In this document: positions 60,666 through 64,000 of the stretch, piece after piece | How the letters are laid out: each line of letters begins with the position of its first letter | Position numbering within the stretch: position 1 is the first letter of the stretch | IMG/VR virus record: IMGVR_UViG_644736364_000008 | Direction: 5' to 3' (one strand) | Length of the DNA stretch: 64,000 bases | Source of the DNA: a virus | Lineage: Duplodnaviria > Heunggongvirae > Uroviricota > Caudoviricetes | The notes under the pieces: generated by a model | What the model was told of the DNA's origin: nothing | The model's database searches: none | The model's input: the letters and a program-made list of their open reading frames with translations, nothing else | Program-made: the position numbers and the translations under genes

Positions 60666-60767
60666 TTAAAGTGGGATCTAACTCTAATAATTTAAAAAAT
60701 TTAATTGGGTCTTGATATTAATCACATAGACTCAATGCTCTTTAGTTCTTACATAGGTGGTTGTATT

Positions 60768-61208
60768 ATGAGTATCCCCAGTTTAGATGTTCATAAAGTT
60801 GTTAAGTGCGCAGAGCATAAAAAGGCTTTAGATGCAATATCTCTCAAACTTAAGAATAACATTATTGACTCAAGCTCTGAATACGATTTTCTTGGCGACA
60901 CAATAATTTTCAATAAAGATAAAAAAAATAGGTTAACCCTCAAACTTTCAACATATGAACTAGAACTTATTTTCAAAGAAACACTGCTAGTCATTGATGA
61001 AGCTCCTGTATTGAAGTTTGCTGCCATTGACCCAACCGATGAAAATAACAACGAGCTGATTGATTTATTTTTATCCAAAGGTGGATTTATTTATATTAGA
61101 GAATACAAATCCGAGCCACATTATGAGTATGGCGACACTTCTCTATTTTTACATATACTTGACGCTACTCTTAAAGAGCTTAAATCTGCAAACAAAATAT
61201 CCTATTAA
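60768..61208 (+). CDS. Hypothetical moron protein
   Basis: AT-rich ORF on the opposite strand (track 60705-61208; AGGTGG RBS before the internal ATG at 60768). Confidence 0.45.
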   Translation: MSIPSLDVHKVVKCAEHKKALDAISLKLKNNIIDSSSEYDFLGDTIIFNKDKKNRLTLKLSTYELELIFKETLLVIDEAPVLKFAAIDPTDENNNELIDLFLSKGGFIYIREYKSEPHYEYGDTSLFLHILDATLKELKSANKISY

Positions 61209-61314: not shown

Positions 61315-61566
61315 TCATTTTTTAGCCATCTCAATTGCGGCATCAAAAAGTCGTTCAAGAATAAAATCAGGGTACTGTAATTTTTCTTGCTCGATATGAA
61401 GCTCATAAATTTTCCCTTCCCACTCCCATTTAAAATTAAATCCAGAAGCAGAAGGTGCGAAATGTGTTTTAGCTTTAGGGTTAGCGTAACCAGCAACAGT
61501 CAACACATCAAACTTAAAATCTTGAGGTTTAATACGCATAATCATATCCTTTGCCAAGTTCATCAT
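61315..61566 (-). CDS. Hypothetical small protein (83 aa)
   Basis: AT-rich ORF between the lysis cassette and the HNH/terminase genes. Confidence 0.4.
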   Translation of the reverse strand: MMNLAKDMIMRIKPQDFKFDVLTVAGYANPKAKTHFAPSASGFNFKWEWEGKIYELHIEQEKLQYPDFILERLFDAAIEMAKK

Positions 61567-61636: not shown

Positions 61637-62074
61637 TTAGTTGGGACATTGCGTCCTGATATACTCCTGCAAGTAATTGACCTGTGAGGTTATCTTGTCG
61701 ATTCCACTTCGGAGACGGTAATAATGGAGTTCAGCATCTGCTGTAAGTCTAGGGCTTTCTCCATCGCCCATGCCGCTGGCTCCGGTCGTTGACTTTGTAC
61801 AGGTGGCGGCGACTTGCAGGCGCTTATGCCCAGCAGAAACATCAGCACGAAGACTTTCGATAGTCGCATTAGCATCAGCAAGCTCCTTTGTATATCTGGC
61901 ATCGAGTTCAGCTACATTACGTTGACGCTTCTGCATATCAGCGATGATGGATGTGGCTTTATCGCGCTGTACTTTGTAGACGATGGCGTCATCACGGTAA
62001 TTATCAACAGCCCATGACAAGCAGACGATGATGCAGATAACCAGAGCGGATATAATCACCGTTACTCTGCTCAT
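61637..62074 (-). CDS. Rz: i-spanin Rz
   Basis: [23 protein letters not shown]... closely resembles lambda Rz. Confidence 0.8.
61690..61869 (-). CDS. Rz1: o-spanin Rz1 lipoprotein, embedded in Rz in the +1 frame
   Basis: Embedded ORF with signal peptide and lipobox (FLLGISAC) followed by a Pro-rich segment. Confidence 0.6.
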
Positions 62075-62547
62075 ACCTGAATCTCTTTGACCGTTCCGCC
62101 GGCTTCTTTGAATTTTGCAATCAGGCTGTCAGCCTTATGCTCAAACTGACCATAACCAGCTCCCGGCAGTGAAGCCCAGATATTGCTGCAACGGTCGATA
62201 GCCTGACGAATATCACCGCGATCAATCATCGGTAAAGCACCACGCTCTTTAATCTGCTGCAGTGCAACAGCATCCTGGCTTTTTGGAGAGAAGTCTTTCA
62301 GTCCAAGCTGTTTACGGTATGCATCCCACCAGCGGGAAAGAAGCTGGTAGCGCCCGGCAGCCGTTGATTTGAGTTTTGGGTTTAGCGTGACAAGTCTGCG
62401 AGGGTGATCGGAGTAATCAGTGAATATTTCTCCGCCCACAATGACGTCATAACCATGATTACGTGTCGGTTGTAGCCCATTATCCGTTCCTTCTGACCAG
62501 GCCACCATATCGAGGAAAGCTTTACGCTGAGGATTAAGATTTTGCAT
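62071..62547 (-). CDS. R: Endolysin (lambda R-like lytic transglycosylase)
   Basis: 158 aa; near-identical over most of its length to lambda R ([17 protein letters not shown]...[19 protein letters not shown]). Confidence 0.9.
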
Positions 62548-62839
62548 TTTTCACCCCTGTCAGTCGTTCCCAGAAGTACGTCAGTGCAACCGAACCCATC
62601 GCACCACTAATCCCCGCAGTTGCGAGAATCATGTAAATACTGAATCCACTTTCGATACTGATTAGGCCACCAATAACACCGGTGAATCCTGATACAACTA
62701 TCTGAGCGAGGGCATTTATCCAGCTCCACGTTGCTTTACTCTGCTTCACATCAATCAGGTAACGGACAAGCCCCCCCCAACCTGCGATGATCAGCAAAAC
62801 AAGCCAGAACGCTCCGGCAAGATTCTCTTTTTCGTGCAT
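62534..62839 (-). CDS. Putative holin
   Basis: ORF 62534-62938; internal Met followed by multiple TM segments; overlaps endolysin start. Confidence 0.55.
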   Translation of the reverse strand: MHEKENLAGAFWLVLLIIAGWGGLVRYLIDVKQSKATWSWINALAQIVVSGFTGVIGGLISIESGFSIYMILATAGISGAMGSVALTYFWERLTGVKNAKS

Positions 62840-62990
62840 ATGAATAGCCGCAGTTTCGCCTCCGACAGAAAATCGGAGCGTGAAATGATATGTTGATTTA
62901 TTATTAATTCGAAAATTACATTCTAATTCATCAGGCATTGATGATTTTATAATAATAAAGGCCGTTCGTTACGGCCTTTATTATTGATAT

Positions 62991-63326
62991 TTATTTTACA
63001 TCCCAAGGTAGTTCCTCAAGAGAGAAGACTAATTCATTATCAATAATTTCGTATTCTGCATAACCTTCAACCTCTCCTGAGAAGTTATTGTCAACGCATC
63101 CTTCATAATAGCTATATGGTGCTATAAAGTGAAACCCATATTCATCTATCTCTGTGATTTCAAAATTGTAGTAATCGTAAGAATATCGAATATCATCATC
63201 AGAAATAGAACTAAGTACATAGTTATTAAATTTATCGGAATGCTTAACGATAAGTTCTGACAACGCGTCAAGATTCTCTGGAGAGATATTTCCTAACGGT
63301 AATCTGTACTCAACGGCATTAATCAT
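62991..63326 (-). CDS. Highly acidic 111-aa protein
   Basis: AT-rich ORF between Q and the lysis genes; about 24 Asp/Glu versus 7 basic residues. Confidence 0.5.
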   Translation of the reverse strand: MINAVEYRLPLGNISPENLDALSELIVKHSDKFNNYVLSSISDDDIRYSYDYYNFEITEIDEYGFHFIAPYSYYEGCVDNNFSGEVEGYAEYEIIDNELVFSLEELPWDVK

Positions 63327-63511
63327 ACAACCTCCTTTTTAACTGATATGAGGTTATATAATGTGTTTCAGTACAAGTAAATAAAAACCCGCTCAACAGC
63401 GGGTTCGTGAAAATTATCAACGGCAGACATACAAAGCCCATCGTTGAGAAAATCTTATCCATATTTTTTGAAAAATGCAAGCTTCATGTCACTATCTTCG
63501 GCGAAAATCAC

Positions 63512-63979
63512 TTATCTCGTCACCTTTCTCAATTGTGTTTCAGCATATGCTTCTTCCTGCCAGCACTTTGTTACTAGTTTATCAATTACGTCTGCATATC
63601 CTTTGTACCACTGATAATCAGTCAGGTCTGGAACCAGCTTCTGGACATGACGTCGTGCCAGTGTAGTCGGTAAACGGCTAAACCGGTTTCCATTGCAACG
63701 CCCACAAGTCTTATAAACAGGCGTGCCATGAAGCCGGGTTCTTTTTTCATCCAGGACAATACCTTTACCCTTACACCCTCTGCACGCCGTGCTGACTTCT
63801 CCCTTGCCATGACAATGCTGACACAGTTCCTTCACCCACTCTTCTTTGATAACGGATTCCCCGCTTCTGGAATGTTTCACCACTTCGCGCAATACATTAT
63901 GAAATCCAGTACCAGTACAATGCTCACAGCGAGCCTTACTTGCCGCAGACCTGGAATAATCAGCAAAGGCAAAATTCAC
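63512..63979 (-). CDS. Q: Late-gene antiterminator Q (lambdoid)
   Basis: 155 aa with CEHCTGTG ... CQHCHGKGE ... CRGCKGKG ... CGRCNG zinc-binding motifs; directly upstream of the lysis cassette. Confidence 0.65.
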   Translation of the reverse strand: MNFAFADYSRSAASKARCEHCTGTGFHNVLREVVKHSRSGESVIKEEWVKELCQHCHGKGEVSTACRGCKGKGIVLDEKRTRLHGTPVYKTCGRCNGNRFSRLPTTLARRHVQKLVPDLTDYQWYKGYADVIDKLVTKCWQEEAYAETQLRKVTR

Positions 63980-64000
63980 AAGGTAAGGGATGATCTGTAA

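Follow-up and report, generated by a model that had tools for sequence, protein, structure and literature searches.

A gene for a strongly acidic protein of 111 amino acids lies between the antiterminator Q gene and the holin gene of an E. coli prophage, a tailed-phage genome (Caudoviricetes; IMG/VR record IMGVR_UViG_644736364_000008), of which we analysed a stretch of 64,000 nucleotides, referred to here as the window. The gene almost certainly sits on a self-contained moron cassette of approximately 495 bp, made up of a promoter-like element, a strong ribosome binding site, the open reading frame (ORF) and a terminator. This cassette is very likely inserted right after the terminator tR', which places the acidic gene before the holin, as the leading ORF of the late transcript that Q antiterminates. 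It is strongly supported that the product is soluble, acidic, non-essential cargo and that its family, phrog_13663, has no characterised relative. We tentatively propose that the target of the protein may be a basic protein, probably one that binds nucleic acid, for which it would be a stoichiometric binder, decoy or inhibitor. Shiga toxin and other conversion genes occupy the Q-to-holin slot in lambdoid phages, and a slot-faithful, strongly acidic and uncharacterised cargo protein is a candidate anti-defence, exclusion or host-modifying factor that would be cheap to test.

An acidic gene on a moron cassette

The genes on the minus strand follow the order Q, intergenic region, acidic ORF, LydA-type holin, GH24 endolysin and Rz/Rz1. 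The features of the region are listed below.

63512-64000, minus strand: 3' part of the antiterminator Q gene (PF03589 Antiterm, E = 1.8e-32; phrog_127, E = 2.9e-66; RefSeq "antitermination protein")
63452-63480, minus strand: candidate pR'-like late promoter, TTGCAT-17-TAAGAT (called at consensus level)
63376-63406, minus strand: tR'-like intrinsic terminator, GAACCCGC-TGTTGA-GCGGGTT followed by a T-tract (terminator scan; folding energy -14.9 kcal/mol)
63353-63381, minus strand: candidate cassette promoter (sigma-70), TTTACT-17-TATAAC (consensus match only)
63331-63337, minus strand: Shine-Dalgarno sequence AAGGAGG, 4 nt 5' of the ATG (read off the sequence; strong)
62991-63326, minus strand: acidic ORF, phrog_13663 family (WP_000606308.1; UniProt J7QCH0)
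62950-62986, no strand assigned: 16-bp hairpin with T-runs on both sides, an intrinsic terminator ending the cassette (terminator scan; -20.2 kcal/mol on the minus strand)
62888-63383, minus strand: inserted cassette, approximately 495 bp (limits from homology breakpoints)
62534-62839, minus strand: LydA-type holin, 101 amino acids from the RefSeq start (PF16083, E = 1.5e-21; phrog_785; RefSeq)
62071-62547, minus strand: GH24 endolysin (phrog_90 endolysin, E = 6e-64; RefSeq "glycoside hydrolase family 24")
61637-62074, minus strand: Rz spanin (ORF list; RefSeq "lysis protein")
61690-61902, minus strand: Rz1, embedded in Rz, with the lipobox LLGISAC (ORF list)

According to the ORF list, the acidic ORF begins with an ATG and comprises 111 codons and a stop codon. 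The protein has a predicted mass of 13.0 kDa, a pI of 4.05 and a net charge of -19, and it ranks first in acidity among the 122 ORFs of at least 80 amino acids in the window. It contains 24 aspartate and glutamate residues against five lysine and arginine residues and two histidines, together with 19 phenylalanine, tryptophan and tyrosine residues, 12 of which are tyrosines. The preliminary description of this region, made from the sequence, had counted roughly 24 acidic residues against seven basic ones and many aromatics, which is correct. It was also right to call the gene AT-rich: the GC content of the ORF is 33.3% (28.8% at third codon positions), compared with 50.5% for the whole window and 45-49% for the Q, holin and lysozyme genes. 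A hydropathy scan found neither a signal peptide nor a transmembrane segment, and there is no hydrophobic segment in the protein (maximum Kyte-Doolittle mean over 19 residues of 0.59), which suggests that it is soluble and cytoplasmic. We can describe the product with high confidence as a soluble, cytoplasmic, strongly acidic alpha+beta protein.

The region is 100% identical in prophages of UTI89, NU14, IHE3034, APEC O18, ATCC 11775 and other strains, and RefSeq annotates the ORF as a hypothetical protein (WP_000606308.1). Comparison of the E. coli and Salmonella copies gave a pN of 0.17 against a pS of 0.80, and dN/dS among other members (copies from the Enterobacter group) was 0.12-0.20, indicating purifying selection. 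Homologues that are 28-72% identical to the protein retain its length. These dN/dS values and the conserved length led us to reject the possibility of a spurious ORF, and the acidic ORF is a genuine gene.

The limits of the cassette were placed where homology to related phages breaks off. On the Q side, homology to phages with the same type of Q (SfV, mEp460, Ayreon and Stx2c phages) ends at position 63383, within the T-tract of tR', and on the other side homology to PhiR47_2, a phage with the same holin, begins again at approximately position 62887. The insert is therefore approximately 495 bp long. The Q gene upstream runs off the end of the window; the complete protein has 250 amino acids in UTI89. 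The TTG..A and TAA.TT columns of the pR'-like candidate are conserved in an alignment with four other prophages, and the sites that correspond to tR' in SfV and Ayreon carry a "terminator" annotation. The candidate cassette promoter is kept in the Salmonella cassette as TTTACA-17-TATAAC, while the -10 hexamer of the E. coli candidate lacks the usual final T. A hairpin comparable to the one that ends the cassette is found 3' of the acidic gene in nearly all related loci. The acidic gene is located 3' of both the pR'-like promoter and the tR'-like terminator, so Q-dependent late transcription must traverse it. This agrees with the earlier suggestion that the gene would be expressed from the late promoter.

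Several features identify the insert as a moron. It is an extra gene between neighbours that are shared with related phages, its base composition is deviant and it has its own terminator. PhiR47_2 has a homologous holin straight after Q and its slot is empty. SfV and Ayreon have a homologous Q and tR' followed by different cargo (a small ORF, a gene for a 350-amino acid methylase-like protein and a 141-amino acid ORF), and an annotated terminator ends each of these units. Homologous cassettes have a GC content of 36-40%, compared with 47-52% in their flanks. The candidate promoters of the cassettes are consensus matches only (TTTACT-17-TATAAC here, and TTGACA-15-TAnnAT with an A-rich upstream tract elsewhere). 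The moron slot that the preliminary description had seen between Q and the holin is thus borne out by an empty slot or other cargo in related phages, by AT-richness and by a terminator belonging to the insert. Some phages share the Q or the holin but do not have the family, which implies that phrog_13663 is non-essential cargo.

In these respects the cassette resembles known lambdoid morons in the Q-to-S interval, such as stx1/stx2 and the 350-amino acid N6/N4 methylase plus small ORF of SfV/933W-type phages, as well as the morons of HK97 and lambda. It shares with them insertion between tR' and the holin, AT-richness, a terminator and a candidate promoter, and like them it is missing from otherwise homologous phages and is read through by Q-modified RNA polymerase. 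However, the product is unrelated to that of any characterised moron and, unlike other morons, the family is bound to a single slot, which it occupies in at least four Q lineages. Morons in the Q-S slot are a well-known kind of element. The phrog_13663 protein family is uncharacterised and lacks a Pfam entry.

The tR' stem (ACCCGC..N6-8..GCGGGTTTTT) is nearly identical 3' of Q genes belonging to different families (PF03589 and DUF1133), as seen by comparing positions 63376-63406 of the window with the equivalent sites in four other loci (L002, L005, L012 and L024). The stem, with the homology breakpoint in its T-tract, may provide a conserved linker for the recombinational exchange of cargo cassettes. 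The reading frame of the holin is open for 33 codons 5' of the RefSeq start (62839-62938, minus strand), giving a protein of 134 rather than 101 amino acids, and the Pfam holin domain starts at residue 47 of the longer form.

The phrog_13663 family and its slot

To identify relatives of the protein we used both sequence and profile searches. A word-indexed search of 5.8 billion proteins found relatives only in E. coli/Shigella, Salmonella (72% identity) and Citrobacter (69% identity). Exhaustive HMMER searching of 1.84 billion cluster representatives with a profile returned 26 matches at E <= 0.001, from approximately 25 clusters, and nearly all of these relatives are 106-118 amino acids long. 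All 25 members that we aligned match PHROG 13663 ("unknown function") and all 25 are acidic, with net charges of -9 to -20 and pI values of 4.05-4.99. The proteins are named "hypothetical" or "uncharacterized" in every source. Nothing significant was found for the 111-amino acid protein in Pfam, NCBIfam or PADLOC; no PADLOC defence-system model was matched at E values up to 1, and a Pfam scan of the 25 members gave no family that was matched by more than one of them and no Imm/immunity family. Sequence searches of the PDB using profiles of four and 25 sequences returned only noise (E >= 0.18). A literature search by accession, slot and mimic terms found no publication on the protein.

A tblastn search of 50,697 GenBank phage records gave no match, and the family was met only in prophages and IMG/VR contigs, apart from a few chromosomal orphans. 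Two scans of genome contigs did not detect a relative, and the taxonomic breadth given here for the family is based on names used in the protein database. Among 1,021 complete E. coli genomes that match some part of a 621-bp query, 130 carry at least 80% of it, which corresponds to approximately 130 of 5,426 complete E. coli genomes overall, including UTI89, NU14, IHE3034 and APEC strains.

To characterise the genomic context of the family we examined approximately 45 loci, drawn from ten homologue look-ups in genome and metagenome assemblies and 27 IMG/VR viral contigs, and scored them with reference Q, holin and endolysin proteins. The acidic gene is always downstream of Q and upstream of the holin in prophage and viral loci with enough flanking sequence. 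In most loci (approximately 40) it starts 100-260 nt past the end of Q and stops approximately 90-270 nt before the holin; the remaining loci have additional cargo on one side, between the acidic gene and either Q or the holin. Even members that are only 26-40% identical to the window protein hold this slot. Upstream of the gene there are four types of Q (PF03589, DUF1133, PF06530 and an unclassified protein of 204 amino acids) and downstream there are three or four types of holin (LydA (3_3), holin_8 with 3_7, and 2_1/2_3). These loci come from E. coli, Salmonella, Enterobacter, Citrobacter, Duffyella, Erwiniaceae and IMG/VR contigs, and the acidic gene has no conserved neighbour in them besides Q and the holin. 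Across these loci phrog_13663 has kept its place as the leading ORF of the late transcript, and the Q, holin and endolysin modules on either side have been swapped. Part of this positional conservation may come from where cargo can be accommodated in lambdoid genomes, and not from any functional requirement.

Three sets of copies depart from the prophage context. A solitary copy lies between sbcB and dacD on an Erwinia-like chromosome (L011; the organism was assigned from a neighbouring permease), another copy lies in a ycgN-dsbB island (L014/L015), and the copies in Erwinia tracheiphila are in a decayed prophage with a fragment of Q approximately 4.7 kb away. Retention of the acidic gene after decay of the prophage hints at a benefit to the cell. 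It also shows that no partner from the phage is required.

A second group of cassettes, from Enterobacter, Citrobacter, Duffyella and Erwiniaceae, contains a 35-nt element (CATTTCTGAyTTAAAAA..TTTTTGACATAA) that is followed by 15 bp and then TAnnAT, regardless of the family of Q. The element lies approximately 45-100 nt 5' of the acidic gene (in L005, L010, L012, L018, L022 and L024) and is better conserved than the coding sequence, being common to cassettes whose proteins differ widely. We consider it a putative promoter with an UP-like A-tract, although the 15-bp spacer is unusually short. Its conservation across Q families is the pattern expected of a promoter that travels with its gene.

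Predicted fold and candidate functions

An AlphaFold2 model of the protein, built from the 25-sequence alignment, has a mean pLDDT of 86.7 and a pTM of 0.77. The predicted topology is beta1, alpha1, alpha2 and then five antiparallel strands. The best structural neighbours of the model are NTF2-like cone proteins (among them ketosteroid-isomerase-like proteins, SnoaL-like proteins and designed binders), and NTF2-like, VirB8-like and cystatin-like alpha+beta folds are among the closest systems to the protein. Ocr, ArdA, Ugi, HI1450, Arn, Gam and anti-CRISPR mimics are absent among the 60 structural matches listed, and a Foldseek search against BFVD found nothing at E <= 0.001. On the basis of these two results, the predicted fold is a generic alpha+beta arrangement of the "helix packed on curved sheet" kind without an informative relative.

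The family alignment shows conserved core aromatics (Y7, F33, F55, F67, Y73, Y/F74 and Y92). Its other nearly invariant residues are polar, including D45, C77, D79, N81, D104 and E105, with the addition of W108, and the cysteine is invariant. These fall into three segments: D45-x-R47-Y48 in the loop between alpha2 and beta2 (before beta2), G76-C77-(K/R)78-D79-x-N81 in the beta4-beta5 hairpin, and D104-E105-T106-x-W108 at the end of beta6 and in the C-terminal tail. From the strand topology alone, the three segments would meet at one end of the sheet. The general acidity is conserved as charge and not as single residues; for example, E85, E87, E91 and E93 alternate along beta5. No conserved histidine and no recognisable catalytic set or triad was seen in the alignment. 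The conserved polar residues suggest a discrete recognition site rather than diffuse charge only.

We favour, as a tentative reading, a binder or decoy that would act alone, with no partner gene. A conserved negative surface, whose geometry is deduced from the strand topology only, and a polar and aromatic patch (D45, R47, Y48, E56, G76-N81 and D104-W108) would be used for binding, and this binding would block a basic nucleic-acid-binding or active-site cleft of a protein of the host or of a rival element. Possible targets would be a nuclease, a defence sensor or a DNA-binding protein. Bulk synthesis of the protein would follow the firing of Q, and the promoter of the cassette might give low-level expression in the lysogen or immediately after the DNA has entered. 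It resembles Ugi and HI1450/YciU in being a small acidic alpha/beta protein. Those proteins are small, acidic, mixed alpha/beta proteins with an antiparallel sheet that act as stoichiometric inhibitors of DNA-binding proteins.

A more specific proposal, which we think rather unlikely, is that the family represents a new class of counter-defence or inter-phage competition proteins whose fixed position is functional. As the first late ORF, the gene would supply its protein before the terminase, portal, capsid and tail proteins are made, and its own promoter, on the end of the DNA that enters first, would perhaps also drive it. Host sensors or nucleases would then be neutralised by a nucleic-acid or charge decoy, or a signal would be sequestered in the Cys/Asp/Trp pocket. 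If the protein is a defence inhibitor, the small set of acidic decoy proteins would gain a new fold, and phages would be seen to use the head of the late operon for counter-defence that is timed. Without a phenotype, the gene would be an ordinary moron of unknown function.

The protein could instead be a minimal NTF2/cystatin-like module that binds a small ligand or is catalytic, for example a signalling-nucleotide sponge, a metal binder or a small enzyme. Its best structural neighbours are the NTF2-like cones, several of which bind ligands or are enzymes, and its nearly invariant aromatics (F33, Y48, Y92 and W108) occur together with C77, D45, D79, N81, D104 and E105. R47 and K/R78, which are among its few basic residues, belong to the same cluster. 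The invariant cysteine and the conserved aspartate, asparagine and tryptophan residues could equally line a pocket for a ligand, bind a metal or form an active site. We regard such a module as unlikely.

The preliminary description had pointed to DNA mimics of the Ocr or ArdA kind or other anti-defence factors. In a narrower form of the binder reading, the protein would be such a mimic and would block type I restriction-modification, BREX or comparable defences that target DNA. We consider this improbable. The likeness is to T7 Ocr (gp0.3) and ArdA, which have a similar size, a pI of about 4 and an excess of aspartate and glutamate that is conserved among homologues; Ocr has 116 amino acids, compared with 111 here. 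Strong negative charge is indeed conserved (pI 4.05 and -19 in 111 amino acids here, -9 to -20 across the 25 members), and the alternating E85, E87, E91 and E93 of beta5 would line one face of the sheet. The position of the gene could also suit early action. Lambda-like cos phages inject the Q-lysis end of their DNA first, the cassette is approximately 2.7 kb from the HNH/terminase (cos) end, and the gene would be expressed immediately on entry if the cassette promoter is real; a constitutive promoter at the leading end would echo the logic of T7 gene 0.3. However, the sequence of the protein matches neither Ocr nor ArdA, nor any family in Pfam, PADLOC or NCBIfam, and the searches above did not relate it to a known mimic by sequence or predicted fold. 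The fold counts against mimicry, late expression is the wrong time for shielding incoming DNA from restriction, and a discrete polar cluster with an invariant cysteine is atypical of a pure charge mimic. An anti-restriction function is therefore not supported. Homology to a lysis or structural accessory protein, which the preliminary description had named as a finding that would count against its proposal, was looked for and none was found.

We are similarly doubtful that the protein is an orphan immunity or antitoxin-like protein directed against a basic nuclease toxin (from a bacteriocin, CDI or T6SS), or a decoy superinfection-exclusion factor. Immunity proteins are typically small, acidic, cytoplasmic and alpha+beta. 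The cassette stands alone, with its terminator and its promoter-like element, and solitary genes kept in Erwiniaceae chromosomes after prophage decay point to a host benefit. Against this, no toxin gene adjoins the acidic gene in any of the approximately 45 loci, on which ground we rejected a cognate immunity protein; the only pyocin-type DNase, in one prophage, comes with a PF01320 immunity gene of its own; and no member matches an Imm/immunity Pfam family. Strict placement in the late operon is also unexpected for a function that serves the lysogen.

A role as an accessory of lysis or of the late programme, either as an antiholin-like timing regulator or as a modulator of Q and late transcription, is highly unlikely. 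The gene is invariably the first ORF after Q and tR' and lies directly before the holin, which in the window is of the LydA type, like LydA of P1. PMC9025707 describes LydB as a soluble antagonist of P1 LydA. However, the family precedes holins of three or four unrelated families and follows Q genes of at least four lineages, and there are phages with the same holin or the same Q that do not have it. The protein has neither a membrane nor a SAR segment, the family is not co-inherited with one holin family, a terminator separates the acidic gene from the holin, and solitary chromosomal copies exist. An antiholin or lysis regulator was rejected for these reasons (several holin families, no membrane segment, a terminator of its own and orphan copies). 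Finally, there is only a marginal chance that the protein is a cytoplasmic factor freed by phage lysis that would act, like Stx, on competitors or a eukaryotic host: it has the same slot as stx, has no export signal, would be highly made late, and its 100%-identical matches listed are largely from human, chicken, duck, swine and dog strains, but it has no toxin- or enzyme-like feature, its family also occurs in plant-associated Erwiniaceae as well as in Enterobacter and Citrobacter, and the idea is pure analogy.

Other cargo near Q and the lysis genes

Other genes of possible interest were observed in the loci that carry the acidic gene. An Erwiniaceae prophage (L022, 7598-10160, and L023, 2917-5479) encodes an S-type pyocin/colicin DNase of 766 amino acids (PF06958 and PF21431), and the genes for this DNase and its PF01320 immunity protein are directly 3' of the lysis cassette. 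A bacteriocin in this position would be freed by phage lysis. Another prophage (L024, 575-2449) contains, in the nin region 5' of Q, a gene for a 624-amino acid NACHT/NB-ARC protein that is Avs-like by its domains.

Two loci (L012, 5432-6839, and L013, 3071-4283) have, 3' of the cassette, a Phage_holin_8 gene that is split or duplicated by a reverse-oriented gene for a protein of 197-206 amino acids with no Pfam match, which is further cargo in the slot of the acidic gene. Prophages of Citrobacter and Salmonella (L018-L021, 2476-4030) have two or three genes in reverse orientation between Q (PF06530) and the acidic cassette. Their products have no Pfam match and are 140 and 289 amino acids long, with an additional protein of 69 amino acids in L018 and L021. 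In the same loci the acidic gene is flanked by a 63-amino acid ORF and a gene for a 350-amino acid N6/N4 methylase.

Two further ORFs in the window lie beyond the lysis genes. The first (61315-61566, minus strand) is directly after Rz, has a GC content of 35.7% and encodes 83 amino acids, corresponding to a 74-amino acid hypothetical protein in UTI89; it has no family match in Pfam, PHROGs, NCBIfam or PADLOC. The second (60705-61208, plus strand) runs antisense to the late genes in the interval that separates Rz from the HNH/terminase genes. It has a GC content of 32.5% and encodes 167 amino acids from a TTG codon or approximately 146 from the first ATG. Its relatives are near-identical only (three clusters) and it has no Pfam, PHROG or PADLOC match. 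The ORF is intact in the window and is frameshifted and unannotated in UTI89, and it seems to be another orphan cargo gene, situated at the flank of the lysis cassette.
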